A stretch of DNA of 64,000 bases from an uncultured bacterium (GTDB lineage: Bacteria > B130-G9), in NCBI GenBank assembly GCA_965372715.1, contig CBDVDH010000013.1:1-64000 (forward strand), given 5' to 3'. The translations under genes were made by a program, and so were the position numbers. The first letter of the stretch is position 1, and each line of letters opens with the position of its first letter. This document shows positions 18,225 through 48,621 of this stretch, piece after piece. The notes under the pieces were generated by a model. It ran no database searches. It saw only the letters and a list, made by a program, of their open reading frames with translations, and was not told the DNA's origin.

Positions 18225-18683
18225 ATGATTGATGATACAAGAAGGGTTCTCGTTATTCACGGGCCGAATATGAACCTCCTGGGGCGCCGCGAGCCTAAGA
18301 CCTATGGGACGACGTCGCTTGAGGCCGTTGACCGACAGCTGGCGCAGCTCGGTCGGGAATTAGGTGTTGAGGTCAAGGCTTTCCAGTCGAACAGCGAGGG
18401 CAGTATCATCGACAGGATTCAGGCCGCCGGGCCGGAGGGATTCTCGGCGATAGTCATCAACCCGGCAGGCTACAGCAATACTAGCGTGGCTATCCGGGAC
18501 GCCATCTCCGCGTGCACATTGCCAGTAATCGAGGTTCACGTCTCCAACATCTTCAGGAGGGAGGCGTTCAGGCAGAACATGGTGACCGCCGGCGCCTGCC
18601 GAGGGATGATCTGCGGCCTCGGCGTCGATTCGTATTATCTTGCTCTCAGAGCCGCGGTTGCAATGCTCAGCGAACAAGTTTGA
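18225..18683 (+). CDS. aroQ: type II 3-dehydroquinate dehydratase
   Basis: HGPNMNLLGRREP..YG, QSNSEG, INPAG, EVHVSN. Confidence 0.96.
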   Translation: MIDDTRRVLVIHGPNMNLLGRREPKTYGTTSLEAVDRQLAQLGRELGVEVKAFQSNSEGSIIDRIQAAGPEGFSAIVINPAGYSNTSVAIRDAISACTLPVIEVHVSNIFRREAFRQNMVTAGACRGMICGLGVDSYYLALRAAVAMLSEQV

Positions 18684-18719
18684 CCTTGAACTTTCAACTT
18701 TGAACTTTGAACTTAGCTA

Positions 18720-21131: not shown

Positions 21132-21382
21132 GAAGTTCAAAGTTCAAAGTTGAAGGTTGAAGGTCCGAGGTTGAAAGTCGGCTGGGTGCTTTGGAGTGCG
21201 GTGGCTTGACGCGGCGCCAGCTATGATTGTGAATCTCGCGATTTTATGCCCACTGCTATGTGCAATGAGCCATCCATCGCAGGGCGGTGTCGAGCCACCG
21301 CCAACCAAAGCGGCGTCGAGCCGCCGCACTCCGAAAATCAGCCCGCTTGATTCGGGAACGCTGATTTCGTAACATCCAGCCT

Positions 21383-24313
21383 ATGACTGACGCACCGGAT
21401 ATCATGAGGCGCCTCGTCGAGAGGTTCTCGGACAATATCGGAAGCTACCGCGCCGGCGGCTATAACGAGACGCGTGTTCGCATCGAGTTCATCGACCCGA
21501 TGTTCAAGGCGCTCGGCTGGGACATGGATAATGAGGCGGGCTATGCTGAGGCCTACAAAGAGGTCATCCACGAGGACGCTATCAAGATCGGCGGCGCGAC
21601 CAAGGCGCCTGATTACTGCTTCCGCATCGGCGGCACGCGCAAGTTCTTTCTGGAGGCCAAAAAGCCCGCCGTCAGCATCCGAACCGACCCGGAGCCAGCC
21701 TATCAGCTCCGCCGCTACGCATGGTCGGCGAAGCTGCCGCTGAGTATCCTGACCGACTTTGAGGAGTTCGCGGTCTATGACTGCCGAATGCGGCCAGTGC
21801 AGCATGATAAGGCCTCGATGGGCCGCACGCTCTACCTCAAATACACGGACTACCTGGACCGCTGGGACGAGATAGCAAGCATCTTCTCAAAAGAGGCCAT
21901 TCTCAAAGGCTCGTTCGACAAATACGCCGAATCGACGCGCCGCAAGCGAGGCACGGCCGAGGTCGACGCCTCGTTTCTAGCCGAGATCGAATCCTGGCGG
22001 GATGTGCTTGCCAGAAACATCGCGCTTCGCAACAAGGACCTGGGCGTGCGAGAGCTCAACCAGGCCGTTCAGAGAACCGTTGACCGCATCCTCTTCCTGC
22101 GGATGTGCGAGGACCGAGGCGTCGAGAACTACGGGCGGCTTCAGGCGCTTCTCAACACCCAGAATGTCTATGGGCGGCTGGGCGAGCTCTTCAGTCAGGC
22201 TGACGATAAATACAACTCCGGGCTGTTTCACTTCAAAAGCGAGCGGGGCCGTGAGGACTACGACGGCTGGACGCTGGACCTCACCATCGACGACAAGGTC
22301 CTGAAGGGCATCATCAAGCGGCTCTACTACCCCGAATGCCCGTTCGAGTTCTCGGTTCTGCCCGCCGACATTCTCGGCCACATCTACGAGCAGTTCCTGG
22401 GCAAGGTCATCCGCCTCACGAAAGGCCATCAGGCGAAAGTCGAGTTCAAGCCCGAGGTCAGAAAGGCCGGCGGCGTCTATTACACGCCGACCTACATCGT
22501 GGATTACATCGTCAAGAACACCGTGGGCAAGCTTTGCGAGCAAGCCGCGCCGAAGAAGGTGGCAGAGCTGCGGATACTCGACCCAGCGTGCGGCTCCGGC
22601 TCATTCCTTTTGGGCGCGTATCAATACCTGCTCGACTGGCATCTGAAGTGGTATCTGGACAACGACCCCGAAAAGCACGCCAAAGGCAAAAAGCCCGCCA
22701 TATACGAATCCGGGGCGGAGCCGACTTCGCCCAATCAGAATGGGCTACGACGGCTAAACTGGCGGCTCACGACGGCGAGGCGCAAGGAGATACTGCTGAA
22801 CAACATCTACGGCGTTGACATCGACCAGCAGGCCGTCGAGGTAACCAAGCTCTCGCTGCTCCTGAAGGTCCTAGAAGGCCAGACCGCCGAGGGCATCAAG
22901 CAGCAGCTCGCCCTCTTCCGCGAACGCGCCTTGCCCGACCTCGCCTCGAACATCAAGTGCGGCAACAGCCTCATCGGCCCCGACTTCTACGACGGCAAGC
23001 AGATGTCGATATTCGACCAGGACGACCTCTATCGCATCAACGCCTTCGACTGGAACAAGGAGTTCCCGGAGATAATGGGAGCCGGCGGCTTTGACGCCGT
23101 CATCGGGAACCCCCCGTATGGGGCAGTCTTTTCCGAGAAACAAAGCGACTACCTGAAAAAGAGATTTGAGACGTTTGTGTGGCGGGGCGAGAGCTACCTG
23201 GCGTTTGTTGAGAAAGGTGTTCAGGCGCTGAAGCTAGGCGGGCGGTTCGGCTACATAATCCCGGACACTTATCTGAATCTCGGCTTTACCCATGGGCTGC
23301 GAAAGTTCCTGCTTGAAAGCACTAGACTGCGTCAGATTGTGTCTCTGCCTCCAAACGTGTTCCCACGCTCGACGGTTGACACGACGCTTCTATTTGTGGT
23401 CCGGGCAGCGCGGGTGCCCTCCTTTCACCATGCGGACGTCTCGGTGAAAATCCTGAGCGGGCCGGGGCCGAGATCTGCTACGGTTCACCTAACCCGTGAG
23501 TTCTCTGTCCCAACAAGCCTTTGGCACGCCCAAGACGCGTTTAATGTGCACAGTGACGCAGCTGAGACACGCCTTGTCATGCGGGTCCAGAAGGAAGGCG
23601 CGCCGCTATCCCGGTTAGCCGAGCTCTTCTATGGGATCAAGGCTTATCAGGTCGGTAAGGGGAAGCCGCCCCAGACCAAGGAAGTCCGAGAGACGAAGCC
23701 CTTCACCGCTGAGGAGAGAAAAGACAAGTCCTTCCTGCCCTTCTTTGACGGCAAGCACATCGGACGCTATCAGGTGCTGTGGACACGGAATAACTGGCTG
23801 AAGTACGGCCCCTGGCTCGCGGAGCCGCGCAGCCCAGAAAAGTACGAAGGGGAGAAGATACTGATACGCAAGATTGTTGGTCCGACGCTGGTCGCCACCT
23901 ACCTAGCAGAAACGTCGTGCTGCAATACCTTGCTGTTCGTTTTGAAGATCAGGCCCGGTGCCGGCATCGACTACCCCTGTTTGCTGGGGATCCTGAACTC
24001 CAGATTCATCGGCTGGTATTTCAGAAAGAAGTTCCAGATAAGCGCGGACCAGTTATTCCCACAAATTATGATTCGCGATGTTTTACAGTTCCCGATTGCC
24101 GCGCCCAGCAGCGCTCGTCACGATCGGATGGTTGAGTTGGTTGAGCGTATGCTTGATTTGCACAAACGCCTTCAGGTGGTGAGGACGGAGCATGACAAGG
24201 AGGTCCTGCGGCGGCAGATTGCGGGGACGGACGATGAGATCGACCGGCTGGTCTATGAGCTGTATGGGCTGACGGAGGCGGAGATTAGGATTGTGGAAGC
24301 GACCGGCAAATAG
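21383..24313 (+). CDS. Type IIG (Eco57I-like) fused restriction endonuclease/N6-adenine methyltransferase
   Basis: PDY...LEAKK nuclease, GVYYTP, ILDPACGSGSFL, IGNPPY, C-terminal TRD and DxEIDRLVYELYGL tail. Confidence 0.95.
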   Translation: MTDAPDIMRRLVERFSDNIGSYRAGGYNETRVRIEFIDPMFKALGWDMDNEAGYAEAYKEVIHEDAIKIGGATKAPDYCFRIGGTRKFFLEAKKPAVSIRTDPEPAYQLRRYAWSAKLPLSILTDFEEFAVYDCRMRPVQHDKASMGRTLYLKYTDYLDRWDEIASIFSKEAILKGSFDKYAESTRRKRGTAEVDASFLAEIESWRDVLARNIALRNKDLGVRELNQAVQRTVDRILFLRMCEDRGVENYGRLQALLNTQNVYGRLGELFSQADDKYNSGLFHFKSERGREDYDGWTLDLTIDDKVLKGIIKRLYYPECPFEFSVLPADILGHIYEQFLGKVIRLTKGHQAKVEFKPEVRKAGGVYYTPTYIVDYIVKNTVGKLCEQAAPKKVAELRILDPACGSGSFLLGAYQYLLDWHLKWYLDNDPEKHAKGKKPAIYESGAEPTSPNQNGLRRLNWRLTTARRKEILLNNIYGVDIDQQAVEVTKLSLLLKVLEGQTAEGIKQQLALFRERALPDLASNIKCGNSLIGPDFYDGKQMSIFDQDDLYRINAFDWNKEFPEIMGAGGFDAVIGNPPYGAVFSEKQSDYLKKRFETFVWRGESYLAFVEKGVQALKLGGRFGYIIPDTYLNLGFTHGLRKFLLESTRLRQIVSLPPNVFPRSTVDTTLLFVVRAARVPSFHHADVSVKILSGPGPRSATVHLTREFSVPTSLWHAQDAFNVHSDAAETRLVMRVQKEGAPLSRLAELFYGIKAYQVGKGKPPQTKEVRETKPFTAEERKDKSFLPFFDGKHIGRYQVLWTRNNWLKYGPWLAEPRSPEKYEGEKILIRKIVGPTLVATYLAETSCCNTLLFVLKIRPGAGIDYPCLLGILNSRFIGWYFRKKFQISADQLFPQIMIRDVLQFPIAAPSSARHDRMVELVERMLDLHKRLQVVRTEHDKEVLRRQIAGTDDEIDRLVYELYGLTEAEIRIVEATGK

Positions 24314-24366
24314 GCTGGGCAGCCAGCCCCCCGAGGAACCGGCTGCCCGAAAACCTGATTCGGCAT

Positions 24367-24600
24367 CTAGCCTTCCGGCGGGTAAGGATCATTGCCGAAC
24401 GTCGACTCTCTCTGGAAACGTCCTTTCTTGTCATGGACGATCAGCTGAGAAGGCGAATGCTTCTTTGCGTCCGCCCTTCCCCACTTTTCCGCGGAAGCCT
24501 TCGTTTCGAAGCACTTCCGAGCGCGGGGAGCTCCTTGGTTCTTGACCTTCCAGCCCTCGCTCTTCGAGGGAACAAGATGGGTCACTTTTCTGCTAGCCAT
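24367..24600 (-). CDS. DUF2188 family protein
   Basis: THLVP...GWKVK...RA...FETK...IVH.K.GRFQRE.TFGNDPYPPEG; aggagg RBS. Confidence 0.9.
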   Translation of the reverse strand: MASRKVTHLVPSKSEGWKVKNQGAPRARKCFETKASAEKWGRADAKKHSPSQLIVHDKKGRFQRESTFGNDPYPPEG

Positions 24601-24814
24601 ATAGCAACACCTCCTTCCTGGTGAGCATCTAGGAACGCGTGAGCTAACAGACTCACTCTGCCCTTCAGCTCTATCTAGCCGGGTAAAACCCGGGGCCGGT
24701 CAAGCGATCTGGAGCCATCGCTCCGACGCTCTTATTTTTCATTGCCGTCAATATATATGGGTATCGCCAAAAGTCAACACTCTATTTGGTATGCTCTCAG
24801 GGACTTGATGTTGC

Positions 24815-24925
24815 CGGCAGATTGTCAAGATACAGACCCGGTCGCGTTGCGGCGACGGACGCCGAGATCGACCGCCTCGTCTATGAGCTCTACGGGTTGA
24901 CGGAGGCGGAGATCGCGATTGTGGA
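24815..24925 (+). repeat. degenerate copy 1 of the Type IIG gene 3' end
   Basis: encodes AATDAEIDRLVYELYGLTEAEIAIV versus native AGTDDEIDRLVYELYGLTEAEIRIV. Confidence 0.92.
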
Positions 24926-24973
24926 TTGCGGATTGAAGCCTTCGCGTCCTTTGTGTCTTCCTGGTGTCGCTGA

Positions 24974-25245
24974 TTCTTCGTGGCTCTTGGTGTCGTTGGT
25001 GGATTCAGATTCTATTAGATATTTCGTCCACGAAGAACACGAAGGCACACGAAGGGAGAAAGAGGGGAAAGGGGCGAGTTGAGCCGGACATCCTCTCTTC
25101 TTCGTGGTTCTTGGTGTCCTTCGTGGATCCGGACTCTATTAGATATTTCGTCCACGAAGGGCACGAAGGCACACGAAGGGAGAAAGGGGGGAATTGAGCC
25201 GGACATCCTCTCTTCTTCGTGGTTCTTGGTGTCCTTCGTGGATCC
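24974..25245. repeat. about 120-bp tandem repeat (about 2.3 units) of a cacgaa-rich palindromic element
   Basis: ttcttcgtggYtcttggtgtc...ctattagatatttcgtccacgaag..cacgaaggcacacgaagggagaaag...ttgagccggacatcctctc repeated; related unit at ~27575-27685. Confidence 0.88.
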
Positions 25246-25255
25246 CCTCTTTTGA

Positions 25256-25362
25256 TGGATGCCGCGATCGACCTCGCCGGTAGGCGGAGTCTACGACGCC
25301 TGGTCTATGAGCTCTACGACCTGACGGAGGGGGAGCTCAGTATTGTGGAGGGGAGCGGATAG
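25256..25362 (+). repeat. degenerate copy 2 of the Type IIG gene 3' end
   Basis: gatgccgcgatcgacc, a short insertion, then RLVYELYDLTEGELSIVEGSG*. Confidence 0.88.
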
Positions 25363-25388
25363 GCTACAAGAACCTTTGTAAAGCTATG

Positions 25389-26519
25389 TTAGGCCGCGCC
25401 GGCGTCTGCGAAATCGAAGCGTCGCCTGAGCCCATTCAGGTGCGTGTGAGGCAGCAGTCCTTCATGGTGCAAACGACCAACTACAATGGCTGCTGAGATA
25501 CCCATCTTTCCAGCAAAGGCCGTCACAGAATCACGGCTCTTATATGCGCCAGACTCTACGAATTGCCGCCATGGTCGCAGTGGGATTAAAAAGTCGCGAC
25601 CGAATTTGTCGGCCTCCACTTCCTCAGCATTGCCTATTTGGTCCGGAGCGGGAACATCCCTATCCTTCTCCACTTCGATGAATATCCGTCTCTTTCTATG
25701 CAGGAGAATGTGCCCTGCCTCGTGAAAGAACGTGAACCAGAGGAAGTCCTCGAGTTTCCCCCGCAAACTAAGCTGAATTAGCGCCTTGTCGGAAGTAAGC
25801 CAACGAGTGGCGCCATAGACCCGAGCGCCCTTGATGGGAGGAGTGAATACCAGCGCAACACCGGCCTGGGCACAAAGATGCACCGTCTCACGCTGGAACC
25901 GCTCCGGCGTGTCCCTTGTCAGAGTACGGATATGGTCAAGTATCGTCCGGAAGTTGGCGCCATCAAATGGCCTGCACTCTATTCCGCGAGCCACAAGTTC
26001 CCCTTTGCGAAGCCAAGCGGAGCAGGCTTCCGGCTGACTGGCAAAAGCTCTCGATGCGCAGAACACGGGCTTGGGGGAAAGCCAGAGCTCCCTCCATTGC
26101 TTGGAGGATGACACGCCGAAAAACTGAAGCACAGCACTCACTTGGTCGATCTTGTGCTTGAAATCTTCAATCCATCCCATTCTGATCATCTCTCGCACCG
26201 GCATCGACTTGAGCCATACGACCTCCTGCCTCATTCGTTCTCTTCTCGCCATCCTGACCAGGCTTTCTCGGTAGCGACGCTCACGGTTGTTCCAGAAACT
26301 TGCAGGTGTTCCAACTGCCTTCTCCAGGTCTGCGGCCATGTCCGGTGTGATCGGGGCGTAGTGATTGATGATCTCACCGACGGTCTTGGGGGTCTTCCCG
26401 ATGCGCAGGGCCAGTTCCGCTTTGGTCATCCCCAAGGCGTCCAATATGTCCTGCAACGTCTCTCCGGGAGGCGTTACAACATCGGGATTGTATTCATTTC
26501 TCAGTTGATCACTCACCAT
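25389..26519 (-). CDS. HigA-type antitoxin (XRE HTH plus ImmA/IrrE-like metallopeptidase)
   Basis: PPGETL...AELA.R.G...ITPDMA..LE...FWNN; WFTFFHEAGH. Confidence 0.92.
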   Translation of the reverse strand: MVSDQLRNEYNPDVVTPPGETLQDILDALGMTKAELALRIGKTPKTVGEIINHYAPITPDMAADLEKAVGTPASFWNNRERRYRESLVRMARRERMRQEVVWLKSMPVREMIRMGWIEDFKHKIDQVSAVLQFFGVSSSKQWRELWLSPKPVFCASRAFASQPEACSAWLRKGELVARGIECRPFDGANFRTILDHIRTLTRDTPERFQRETVHLCAQAGVALVFTPPIKGARVYGATRWLTSDKALIQLSLRGKLEDFLWFTFFHEAGHILLHRKRRIFIEVEKDRDVPAPDQIGNAEEVEADKFGRDFLIPLRPWRQFVESGAYKSRDSVTAFAGKMGISAAIVVGRLHHEGLLPHTHLNGLRRRFDFADAGAA

Positions 26520-26859
26520 GATAGTCCTCCGCCAACTCGAGTATTCGTATGGCCGTCACATGGGACCAATCCAACCCGCCATCAGGCTTCTGAGGTATCG
26601 GTTCATCTGCCACCTCAAAAATCATCCGATATCCCCCATCTAGCCTGACAGCGAGCTGCCCCCTCCGACTTGCTTTCAGTTCGTGGCAACGGGCCTGTGG
26701 CATATATCGCATCACTCCAAGATTCTCTGCGGCAGCCAGATCATCAATCCGTCTTCGGACGAGCCTCGCTCTTTCCGGATGACGTCTGTATCGCTTCTCA
26801 AGCGATCCGGCTTCTGCAAACAGCTTTCTGTCCTTTTCTCTTTTGAATAGGATATCCAC
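26509..26859 (-). CDS. HigB/RelE-type killer toxin
   Basis: RCHELK..RRGQLAVRLDGGYRMIFE...DGGLDW...EDYH; overlaps the antitoxin start. Confidence 0.88.
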   Translation of the reverse strand: MDILFKREKDRKLFAEAGSLEKRYRRHPERARLVRRRIDDLAAAENLGVMRYMPQARCHELKASRRGQLAVRLDGGYRMIFEVADEPIPQKPDGGLDWSHVTAIRILELAEDYHGE

Positions 26860-26960
26860 GCCTTCTTTTCCTACCGGAAGAATGACGCCCTGTTGACAAG
26901 AAGTCAAGCCCTATTAACCCAGAAGGTTAATCCATTCCGCATCATAGAGGCTATAGCGGC

Positions 26961-27005
26961 CGGCAGATTGCGGCGACGGACGGTCAGATTGTGGATTGCG
27001 GATTG
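26961..27005 (+). repeat. degenerate copy 3 of the Type IIG 3' end fused to a heptamer repeat
   Basis: cggcagattgcggcgacggacggtcagatt (RQIAATDGQI) then gtggattgcggattg. Confidence 0.75.
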
Positions 27006-27085
27006 TAACTTGGCAGCGGACGATGGGATCATGGTTTGCAGGGATGAGCCACATCGTATAGTATGCTGGCCCTGGAGGGAATTGG

Positions 27086-27286
27086 ATGATTGTCGAGATT
27101 GATAGAGAAGAAGACGGCCGTTGGATCGCGGAAATACCTGAGCTGCCGGGCGTAATGCAATACGGCCAGACACGGGACGAGGCCATTGCAAAAGCAAAGG
27201 CCCTTGCGCTTCGCGTGTTCGCGGACCGGCTGGAGCACGGAGAACAAGTTCCGGAAGTTGGCGAGATGTTTGCGGTTGTCGTGTGA
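27086..27286 (+). CDS. HicB family antitoxin
   Basis: EEDGRWIAEIPELPGVMQYGQTRDEA. Confidence 0.92.
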   Translation: MIVEIDREEDGRWIAEIPELPGVMQYGQTRDEAIAKAKALALRVFADRLEHGEQVPEVGEMFAVVV

Positions 27287-27498
27287 GCCAATGGCCGTCT
27301 GTAAAGGCGCGACGGCTGCTGGCCGCACTGCTGCGAATAGGCTGGTCGGTCAAGCGTCAATCAGGCGGCTCGCATCGAGTCCTGTGCCGAGCCGGCTTTT
27401 CTGACTTCGTATTCGCCTTCCACGACCATGAAGAGATAGGCCCGCGGATGCTCGCAAGAATCGCCAGGCGAACCGGACTTACGCCCCAGGACCTTTGA
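27283..27498 (+). CDS. HicA family toxin
   Basis: LLRIGW..KRQSGGSHRVL...FAFHD.EEIGPRML; GTGA overlap with hicB. Confidence 0.92.
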   Translation: MSQWPSVKARRLLAALLRIGWSVKRQSGGSHRVLCRAGFSDFVFAFHDHEEIGPRMLARIARRTGLTPQDL

Positions 27499-27525
27499 CG
27501 GACCATAAGAGCGGCACAAGAGCCC

Positions 27526-27571
27526 ATTGGAGCGACGGACGACGAGATTGGGGATTGTGGATTGTGGATTG
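27526..27571 (+). repeat. degenerate copy 4 of the Type IIG 3' end fused to a heptamer repeat
   Basis: attggagcgacggacgacgagatt (IGATDDEI) then ggggattgtggattgtggattg. Confidence 0.65.
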
Positions 27572-27763
27572 AGAGCTTCGTGTCCTTTGTGGTTACCCTG
27601 ATTCTTAGTGGCTCTTGGTGTCCTTGGTGGATTCCCTGTTCTATTCGATAGATGATCCACGAAGACACACGAATGAACACGAAATAGGCAGGGCGGGCGG
27701 GTGCTCAAGTTGCAGAGCGGCTGGCAGTTGGCCGTTCCGCTTTCGCGCAAGGCTGGGGCGGCC

Positions 27764-28681
27764 CTAGTAATTGCTCCCCATTTGACATTCGCTGAACCGG
27801 CGGCGGTCGAGGCTTTCGCAAGTAGCAGCCCAGAAGCCGGCTGTCTCAAGCCTCACCACCAGCTCCTTGCCCTCATCGAGAGACGCCACGGGCGCGAAGA
27901 CTGTCGCGCCGCTGCCTGAGAGCATCGCCCGGTCTATGCCCAGGGCCGAGAACATCGCAAAGACCTCGTCGATGCGCGGATAAAGCCGCCGCGCGGCGGG
28001 CAAAAGGTCGTTGGTCATGAGCTCCCAGCGCTTTGGGCCGTGAGGGGCGTCCAGGAACGCGGCGCAGGCATTGCTGGCTGAGGCGCGTTTGTTGGCGGTT
28101 CCTCTCAGGCGCAAGGCGGCATAGACCCTTTCTGTATCAGCACGAATGCCAGGGTTGGCCAGAACGAAGGCAGTTTTCGGCAAGTCAGGCGCCGTCTGGA
28201 CTATCTCGCCTCTCCCAGTTGCCAGCGCAGTCCCTCCGACCAGAAAGAAGGAAACGTCAGAGCCGAGTCTGGAGGCGATTCGCTGGAGGTCGTCGCGGCC
28301 GATGTCCAGTCCATATTGAGCAACCAGAGCCAAAAGGACGGCGCCGGCGTTGCTGCTTCCGCCGCCGAGTCCTCCGCCGATTGGGATGTTCTTATTGATA
28401 GTAATGGCCAATCCCGCGTCAAATCCGGTCGCCTCGCGAAGCCAATGGATTGCCTGCCACACGAGGTTCTTCTCGTCAACAGGGCAGCTCATGGTATCCG
28501 TGTGAAGTTCAAAATGCCGAGCGACGGGGAGTTCCTCGATGGTGATCTCGTCGCAGAGGTCGATCGACTGCATCACGGTTCTGATGTCGTGATAGTCGTC
28601 CGCTCTCTTGCGCAGGACCTCAAGGACGAGGTTGATCTTCGCGGGGGATTTGATCTTCAGCATCGCACCAGCCAACGGCAC
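27764..28681 (-). CDS. ispE: 4-diphosphocytidyl-2-C-methyl-D-erythritol kinase
   Basis: PAKINL.L, KNIPIGGGLGGGSSNA, GSDV, MLSGSG. Confidence 0.96.
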   Translation of the reverse strand: MPLAGAMLKIKSPAKINLVLEVLRKRADDYHDIRTVMQSIDLCDEITIEELPVARHFELHTDTMSCPVDEKNLVWQAIHWLREATGFDAGLAITINKNIPIGGGLGGGSSNAGAVLLALVAQYGLDIGRDDLQRIASRLGSDVSFFLVGGTALATGRGEIVQTAPDLPKTAFVLANPGIRADTERVYAALRLRGTANKRASASNACAAFLDAPHGPKRWELMTNDLLPAARRLYPRIDEVFAMFSALGIDRAMLSGSGATVFAPVASLDEGKELVVRLETAGFWAATCESLDRRRFSECQMGSNY

Positions 28682-48429: not shown

Positions 48430-48502
48430 AATAATATGGATAATCTCTCAATTCCGCAATCCGAAATCCCCAATCCGCAATCCGAAATCCCCAATCCGAA
48501 AT

Positions 48503-48621
48503 CGGCACGCTCCACAAGCCTCAACATACTTCCACCTCTTAATCTCAAACGCTGATTCGTCTGGTAACAGCCCCAAATCGCAGTCTATAATATGCGAGGG
48601 GAGGGCGAGGTCAAGGAGGCA
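48503..48621. repeat. direct repeat copy B (duplicated ftcD promoter and start)
   Basis: cacctcttaatctcaaaYgctgattcgtctg...gcagtctataa...tatgcgaggg...gaggtcaaggaggca is shared with copy A. Confidence 0.9.

Follow-up and report, generated by a model that had tools for sequence, protein, structure and literature searches.

In a 64,000-nucleotide (nt) stretch of DNA from an uncultured bacterium (assembly GCA_965372715.1, contig CBDVDH010000013.1, positions 1 to 64,000; hereafter the window), the 3' end, or tail, of a Type IIG restriction-modification (R-M) gene recurs in pieces behind the gene, and between the pieces lie toxin-antitoxin (TA) and other small genes. The reading favored here, to which a probability of roughly 0.58 is given, is that such tail pieces offer homology to the host's RecA-type recombination, which would use them as joints for adding or exchanging small TA and defense units with no dedicated integrase involved. 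The window is contig C13 of a genome (G000) of 3.56 Mb that is 96% complete.

The R-M gene (21383..24313, plus strand) lies between a glycosyltransferase gene and ispE and is an unbroken open reading frame (ORF) of 976 amino acids (aa), in which a nuclease, an N6-adenine methyltransferase (MTase), a target recognition domain (TRD) and a helical C-terminus are joined in one polypeptide. Its domains (Pfam HSDR_N at residues 27-135, N6_Mtase, Eco57I, and TaqI_C at residues 786-905; PADLOC REase_MTase_IIG, E 4e-186) predict a Type IIG R-M enzyme, and the protein contains the motifs PD..EAK, DPACGSG and NPPY. A search of the PDB with the protein returned generic MTase matches only, none of them on the tail. 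The native tail (24212..24313, plus strand), whose sequence and coordinates the initial annotation had given correctly, closes the ORF and is the most conserved stretch past the TRD. Identity to three other alleles of the family is 70-95% over residues 1-580 and 72-83% over residues 906-976, but only 10-36% over residues 581-905 (23123..24097, plus strand), a segment that is swapped among relatives. Thus, the TRD side is exchanged between conserved flanks.

The initial annotation counted four further copies of the tail in direct orientation; two are clear and two are short 5' stubs. Copy 1 (24815..24925, plus strand) consists of a 10-nt stub, an insert of about 22 nt and a 79-nt body (24847-24925) that is 86% identical to the tail over its 79 nt (E 4e-20 against the whole genome). 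Copy 2 (25254..25362, plus strand) has a 20-nt piece at 25254, an insert, and a 62-nt body with its own stop codon (25297-25358; 81% over 62 nt, E 8e-10, with the same value for the DNA profile of the family). The inserts that interrupt these two copies (24825-24846 and 25274-25296) are each about 22 nt long and foreign to the tail. Copies 3 (26956..27005, plus strand) and 4 (27526..27571, plus strand) are truncated 5' stubs joined to heptamer runs rather than full copies. Copy 3 matches the tail at 26956-26989 (88% over 34 nt, E 2e-4). When the 3.56 Mb are searched with a 28-nt probe at up to six mismatches, only the native tail and copy 3 are found, and contig C132 of the relative G002 shows the same fusion of stub and heptamers. 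The match of copy 4 (27526-27547) is at chance level when taken alone (E 0.48 with the family DNA profile, and two chance matches of equal quality elsewhere in the genome); the copy is accepted because its longer homologue in G002, which retains 32 nt of the tail (E 3e-4 in a small sequence set), lies behind the same hicBA unit. Copies 1, 3 and 4 run straight into runs of the heptamer GATTG(C/T)G, a word that occurs twice inside the native tail itself.

Outside the window, G000 holds one further tail piece, a 5' half on contig C47. At this place (C47:22830-26750), a different, 1095-aa MTase-bearing (R-M-like) gene stands beside dnaX and is followed by the tail half, a heptamer and hic fragments. 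The dnaX site is occupied by the window's R-M family in G002 and by the 1095-aa gene in G000, which suggests that one R-M gene has been replaced by another.

Each interval between tails had been taken for a self-contained unit, a description that fits three of them; the genuine cargo, as predicted from the ORFs, is a DUF2188 gene, higBA and hicBA. The DUF2188 gene (24367..24600, minus strand; PF09954) is the PADLOC candidate PDC-S16. The higBA unit comprises a HigA-type antitoxin with an IrrE/ImmA peptidase domain (25389..26519, minus strand; Pfam HTH_3 and Peptidase_M78), a homologue of which lies between tail pieces in the relative G006, and a HigB-like toxin of the RelE family (26509..26859, minus strand; PF05015, E 2e-5, just below the cut-off). 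On the opposite strand, hicBA comprises a hicB-like antitoxin (27086..27286, plus strand; PF15919, E 7e-6, just below the cut-off) and a hicA toxin (27283..27498, plus strand; PF07927), with 89-90% and 84-91% DNA identity, respectively, to the copies in G002, G005 and G006. The array ends on the right at ispE (27764..28666, minus strand; Pfam GHMP kinase; 96% to G001). A sigma-70-like promoter match for the DUF2188 gene (24777-24750) agrees at 10 of 12 positions, the number of such sites being that expected by chance, and promoter and terminator scans as a whole stayed at chance level.

The second interval holds no gene of this kind but a palindromic repeat alone: behind a GATTG(C/T)G run stand two and a half units of a dispersed repeat (24917..25250; hairpins at z -3.8 and -6.3) that matches about 20 other sites in the genome. 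Another copy (27572..27690) forms, together with tail copy 4, a direct repeat of 24899-25053. Heptamer runs of this type number 20 in G000. These repeats, which resemble repetitive extragenic palindromes (REPs), and the heptamer runs are part of the joints in the window's lineage and were overlooked in the initial annotation. That annotation had also seen no integrase or intact transposase nearby; the window contig indeed has no tyrosine recombinase above the cut-off and no Y1 transposase, in a search that did not cover serine recombinases or DDE transposases, and the other contigs of G000 carry four tyrosine recombinases and four Y1 transposase genes.

A survey for downstream tail remnants, which the initial annotation had proposed as a check, places the layout well beyond this window. 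It covered 80 loci from GTDB genomes, of which 63 had an intact tail and were counted, and 80 metagenome loci, of which 68 were intact and 56 remained after removal of duplicates. Same-strand copies of the tail occur downstream of the gene at 28 of these 119 loci (17 of 63 GTDB loci with 20 matches, and 11 of 56 metagenome loci with 15 matches), giving 35 matches in 654 kb of downstream DNA; none was found in 540 kb upstream or on the opposite strand at the 119 loci. The surveyed loci are related to one another, so the figures are counts and not independent trials; they include L119, where the match is a whole second gene, and L052 and L131, which are the loci of G003 and G002 (the same sequences as L031 and L036, respectively) and are not independent of the family data given below. 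Among twelve control blocks from the protein core, the only downstream match was the second gene of L119 in the GTDB set, and the metagenome set gave none. N-terminal control blocks matched at three upstream loci, and a block overlapping the 5' side of the tail gave six matches in one set and one in the other. With a DNA profile blind to codons, 42 matches were obtained, every one downstream and on the same strand.

In ten genomes chosen for having a remnant, 15 of 18 non-native tails lie at most 3 kb behind a long ORF ending in the tail (confirmed as an R-M gene in five) and three lie elsewhere. The genome of L118 (G070) has three long ORFs ending in the tail, with a remnant behind each, and two distant tail pieces besides. 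Of 46 ORFs in the intervals, 18 have a Pfam match at E 0.001, two of these being weak and probably spurious; the matches include TIR (two), SIR2, PIN (two), SieB, DUF3800 (two), DUF2726, GIY-YIG, HicAB and one IS3 pair. At two Smithella loci (L073:5708 and L117:14215) the remnant is preceded by the same foreign sequence; a cassette end is therefore shared between genomes outside the window's family too.

The remnants evidently derive from working alleles other than the resident one, to judge from their codons. In 34 ungapped remnants (32 from the survey and two from the window; L119, L131 and one gapped match were excluded), 308 of 482 differences from the resident tail (64%) fall at third codon positions, compared with 66% in pairs of native tails and 33% under random change. 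The remnants lose a near-invariant residue in 19 of 400 cells and native tails in 61 of 1675, whereas random change would break 37%. Selection by the search profile does not produce this result, because the search threshold admits 2346 of 2380 copies to which random changes had been made at 17% divergence. The bias and the spared residues thus mark the remnants as the ends of other working alleles and not as decayed duplicates. The claim that the tail is a recurrent joint stands on its downstream, same-strand recurrence, on the differing TRDs of relatives and the differing cargo behind the tail in them, and on this origin of the remnants. Expression of the remnants as small peptides was considered and seems unlikely: the upstream frames are short and unrelated, and four family copies are frameshifted.

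The initial annotation had further proposed that incoming DNA carries a new TRD along with its tail. Relatives do carry different TRDs, as the comparison of residues 581-905 shows, but none of 33 remnants contains a displaced TRD, and the helix preceding the tail is clearly included in L105 and L107 alone. A new TRD would therefore need a second crossover in the MTase core.

Among the relatives, the location of the R-M gene varies: it follows the glycosyltransferase gene in G000 and G001, stands beside dnaX in G002 and before an rnfC-like gene in G003 (identified by eye), and lies elsewhere in G004. The cargo behind the tail varies likewise. Behind the R-M gene of G002, an unknown gene comes first, then one remnant, a REP, hicBA and a second remnant; behind that of G003 stand another unknown gene, a remnant and hic fragments. 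A second relic in G003 consists of an R-M head, Nmad3, the tail, hicBA and a tail piece, the Nmad3 gene (L032, contig C130) lying between head and tail. In G005 (L034; C15:804-1055) the R-M gene has collapsed to a fusion of head (residues 1-57) and tail (about 939-972), the junction apparently lying at a short DNA similarity between the two, and hicBA still follows. Behind the tail in G003 (L031:4464-5249) and in G006 (L035), an unannotated gene reads into the remnant, which forms the gene's end. Pieces resembling relBE and hicB lie upstream of the R-M gene in G004 (L221; C246:186-922), with no tail piece detected there.

In one genus of the family (g2), tail pieces flank TA units at four sites where no R-M gene was found in the DNA examined. 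Two of these sites are closed by housekeeping genes on both sides, dapA/ydjM (G002 C132) and nitroreductase/truA (G002 C149), and a third lies before gyrB (G002 C86/C106, joined by inference, and G005 C145); G006 has such places before ydjM (C452/C127, with a 27-nt overlap) and on C180. At the ydjM site the cargo is hic fragments in G002 and higBA plus relBE in G006, in both cases behind the same last tail copy; a gene for a pPIWI-associating nuclease adjoins a tail piece and higBA in G006 (L044; C452:1256-2386). The relBE unit with its tail flanks is 93% identical between G002, where it stands at gyrB, and G006, where it stands at ydjM, and is found before gyrB in G005 too. Thus the same units recur between tail pieces at differing sites, hicBA in G000, G002, G005 and G006, and higBA in G000 and G006. 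Four tail copies at the ydjM site in two genomes are 89-93% alike and have a one-base insertion (a frameshift) in common, so these non-coding copies were copied from each other. In G000, no tail piece was found at the gyrB, truA, dapA and nitroreductase sites, the last of which has a REP alone, and ydjM was not found. The possibility that the tail is a dispersed repeat unlinked to R-M genes, raised at the outset as fatal to the proposal, is thus not borne out in G000 and the ten genomes, but in this one genus tail pieces do stand at four R-M-free sites; since the pieces there still flank TA units, this widens the idea more than it refutes it.

The data show the anatomy and polarity of the arrays, the allelic origin of the remnants, exchange of the TRD, and cargo that recurs together with its flanks; the crossovers, the circles and the part played by RecA, which is present in G000, are inferred. 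Incoming DNA of the form tail-cargo-tail could be linear, or a circle released by excision between two tail pieces. It would cross over with the resident tail or with a remnant, pushing older units downstream; if another crossover took place in the conserved MTase core, the new TRD would replace the old one, which would be lost. A unit with tail pieces on both sides would thereafter be independent of the R-M gene. In the window's lineage the joints are composites of a tail piece, a heptamer run and a REP half, any of which could provide the homology.

Several observations weigh against this reading. The recombination event itself has not been observed; no same-species pair spans the locus, since the contigs of G001 are interrupted within the R-M gene and again at the REP that precedes ispE. 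About three quarters of the homologous loci (91 of 119) have no remnant. Two higBA and four hicB paralogues stand elsewhere in G000 with no significant tail piece adjacent, so TA genes have spread in this genome by other routes too. Copies 3 and 4, at 22-34 nt, are short for RecA, and the first junction between tail and cargo is a step that homology alone does not explain. Nor does plain homology predict where the remnants begin: among 27 of 33 remnants aligned over the remnant itself, 12 have their 5' end within the same 12 nt, in an interhelical loop 26-37 nt ahead of codon Q945. The resident tail is the closest of 66 for nine of 19 remnants, as an old duplication would also yield; under the recombination reading, donors would be mostly close kin. 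In addition, a block of tail end, heptamers and REP is itself repeated across the window array (77% over 158 nt), and the youngest-looking event in the family, at G002 C149, is bracketed not by tails but by an 85-nt heptamer/REP repeat (84 of 85 nt identical).

These last two observations are what would be expected if the dispersed REP and heptamer repeats were the active joints, by homology or through a transposase of the Y1 type, like those associated with REPs (RAYTs), acting in trans, and the tails were passengers, picked up a single time at the R-M locus and since then moved together with the TA units. This seems unlikely overall. Three of the four window copies run into heptamers, the event at C149 places tail-hicBA-tail inside the near-identical repeat where the matching nitroreductase site of G000 has only the REP, and G000 has its four Y1 transposase genes; but the repeats, examined in the window's family only, leave unaccounted for the remnants in other phyla, which lie strictly behind the R-M gene, and three places in G006 (C127, C180 and C486) have tail pieces with no REP or heptamer alongside. 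The clustered ends raise instead the thought of a recombinase or nuclease acting in trans at a fixed site in the tail, as with islands at gene 3' ends, so that the remnants would be displaced 3' ends and the cargo integrase-less satellites. Only one of the 27 remnants reaches beyond 60 nt upstream, whereas alignments between native tails of similar identity do so in 242 of 300 cases. In the family, codon R944 rather than the loop before Q945 is the starting point of several pieces, and the tyrosine recombinases on other contigs of G000 would be candidates. However, the other 15 ends are spread from -102 to +42, and the loop is a variable one where 29 of 300 native pairs break too. A uniform null gives P 5e-5 to 0.004 for the clustering but exaggerates its significance, as related loci are treated as independent and some remnants have a locus or a history in common. 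Inspection of the junctions by eye showed no common core motif, and the native tail forms no stable hairpin, which together make such an enzyme decidedly doubtful.

Very improbable is the view that the copies are inert scars, left where cargo inserted with a long target duplication of the resident tail and then decayed. Target duplication at R-M loci is described in PMC2853133, and the frequent closeness of the resident tail and the inserts and deletions in the window copies would agree with it. The third-position bias and the sparing of invariant residues have already largely refuted it; moreover, the window copies are no nearer to their own tail (86% and 81%) than to tail copies of relatives (up to 89-90%), and cargo with its tail flanks recurs at other sites. 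Scars would survive as an explanation only if the resident 3' end were replaced after each duplication, whereupon they merge with the recombination joints preferred here.

A bolder extension of the recombination reading is put forward tentatively, as possible rather than probable. The Type IIG tail would be a working attachment element, with a preferred crossover at the helix-loop codons, and the tail-bounded TA and defense units would form a mobile pool, its members being excised, inserted anew and passed from locus to locus and from lineage to lineage. In the window's bacterial family the element would have broken free of the R-M gene and seeded R-M-free arrays beside housekeeping genes, making up a cassette system that lacks its own integrase and relies on a coding sequence co-opted for the purpose.

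The question these loci bear on is how defense islands grow gene by gene without mobility genes. Tail pieces give that growth a countable footprint at about a quarter of the sampled loci of one widespread R-M family, with cassette borders marked to the base, and they couple a change of restriction specificity to the gain of new defense genes. The bracketed genes include TIR, SIR2, PIN, SieB, DUF3800 and Nmad3, and more than half of the ORFs in the intervals lack a Pfam match, so that tail-bounded intervals can serve as a search rule for new defense genes.

At least two families of dispersed palindromic repeats, together with heptamer runs, are spread across the genome, with sites in the window at 21188-21335, 24974-25245, 27600-27690 and 48445-48505. 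The first of these belongs to a second REP-like family (21188..21335; fold z -4.3; many genome copies) and lies just upstream of the R-M gene. Runs of another heptamer, TTCAAAG, flank the glycosyltransferase gene in inverted orientation (18682-18714 and 21133-21171), and G001 has a run of the GATTG type at the matching place after that gene. Contigs from four sequencing runs, among those holding a small share (5-6%) of the sequence words, include pieces from relatives over hicBA and ispE and joints in which a REP directly precedes copy 3; at their likeness of 80 they possibly come from other organisms or repeats and were not used as evidence.

Integrons rely on an IntI integrase, have an attC-type hairpin at each cassette end and carry mostly co-oriented cassettes. 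The window array resembles them as a polar series of short TA and defense units, separated by repeats and growing from one end, but the label integron-like, used in the initial annotation, is not supported in the strict sense. Its repeat is a coding sequence, and its cargo lies on both strands. No IntI (TIGR02249) was found above the cut-off in the 96% complete genome (best score 72 of 265 bits), where 14 control genomes also gave none and so provide no positive control; by fold scores alone, with no attC model, the native tail has no attC-like hairpin (z -1.7 and 0.0 on its two strands), and no fold is common to the copies, the bottom strand of copy 1 folding at z -2.9. Integrative islands at gene 3' ends accrete in tandem, with the gene end restored and the old end displaced downstream, as here; unlike those islands, the units carry no integrase (one IS3 pair among 46 interval ORFs), and their junctions are clustered and do not look fixed. 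The palindromes of the second interval and upstream of the R-M gene are dispersed intergenic hairpins like those of the REP/REPIN systems with RAYT, and Y1 transposases occur in the genome; such repeats leave the presence of tail copies in other phyla unexplained.

A close parallel is the displacement arrays of rhs C-termini, in which, according to Jackson et al. (2009, PMC2935791), a conserved coding stretch is found as direct repeats downstream of the intact gene and homologous recombination with incoming DNA, with no integrase, was proposed. Direct repeats of a conserved gene part likewise follow the intact Type IIG gene, but the rhs repeat is the end of the core before the variable tip, nearly identical to the gene, and the displaced tips are kept. 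In the present case what repeats is the extreme end of the gene, past the variable domain; it is 65-96% identical, leaves no displaced TRD and separates unrelated stand-alone genes. Insertion with long target duplication at R-M loci and allelic diversity of the TRD in Type IIG genes were described by Furuta, Abe and Kobayashi (2010, PMC2853133), who also mention a tRNA-targeting R-M/integrase unit. Those cases and the present one share long direct repeats at R-M loci that lack mobility genes, and TRD exchange between conserved flanks; there, an R-M system has inserted into a chromosomal target, two copies of which flank it, whereas here the R-M gene supplies the repeat and non-R-M genes lie between, and the tail copies come from different alleles rather than being two copies of one target. 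A 2025 review of R-M systems (PMC12707154) notes TA genes in defense islands and, in its available portion, has no tail-joint mechanism; a search covering part of the literature, supplements excluded, turned up no account of tail remnants following Type IIG genes. Set beside these systems, the layout is real and general, and what the present analysis itself adds is the codon evidence, the clustering of the ends, and the R-M-free, tail-bounded arrays with their shared frameshift.

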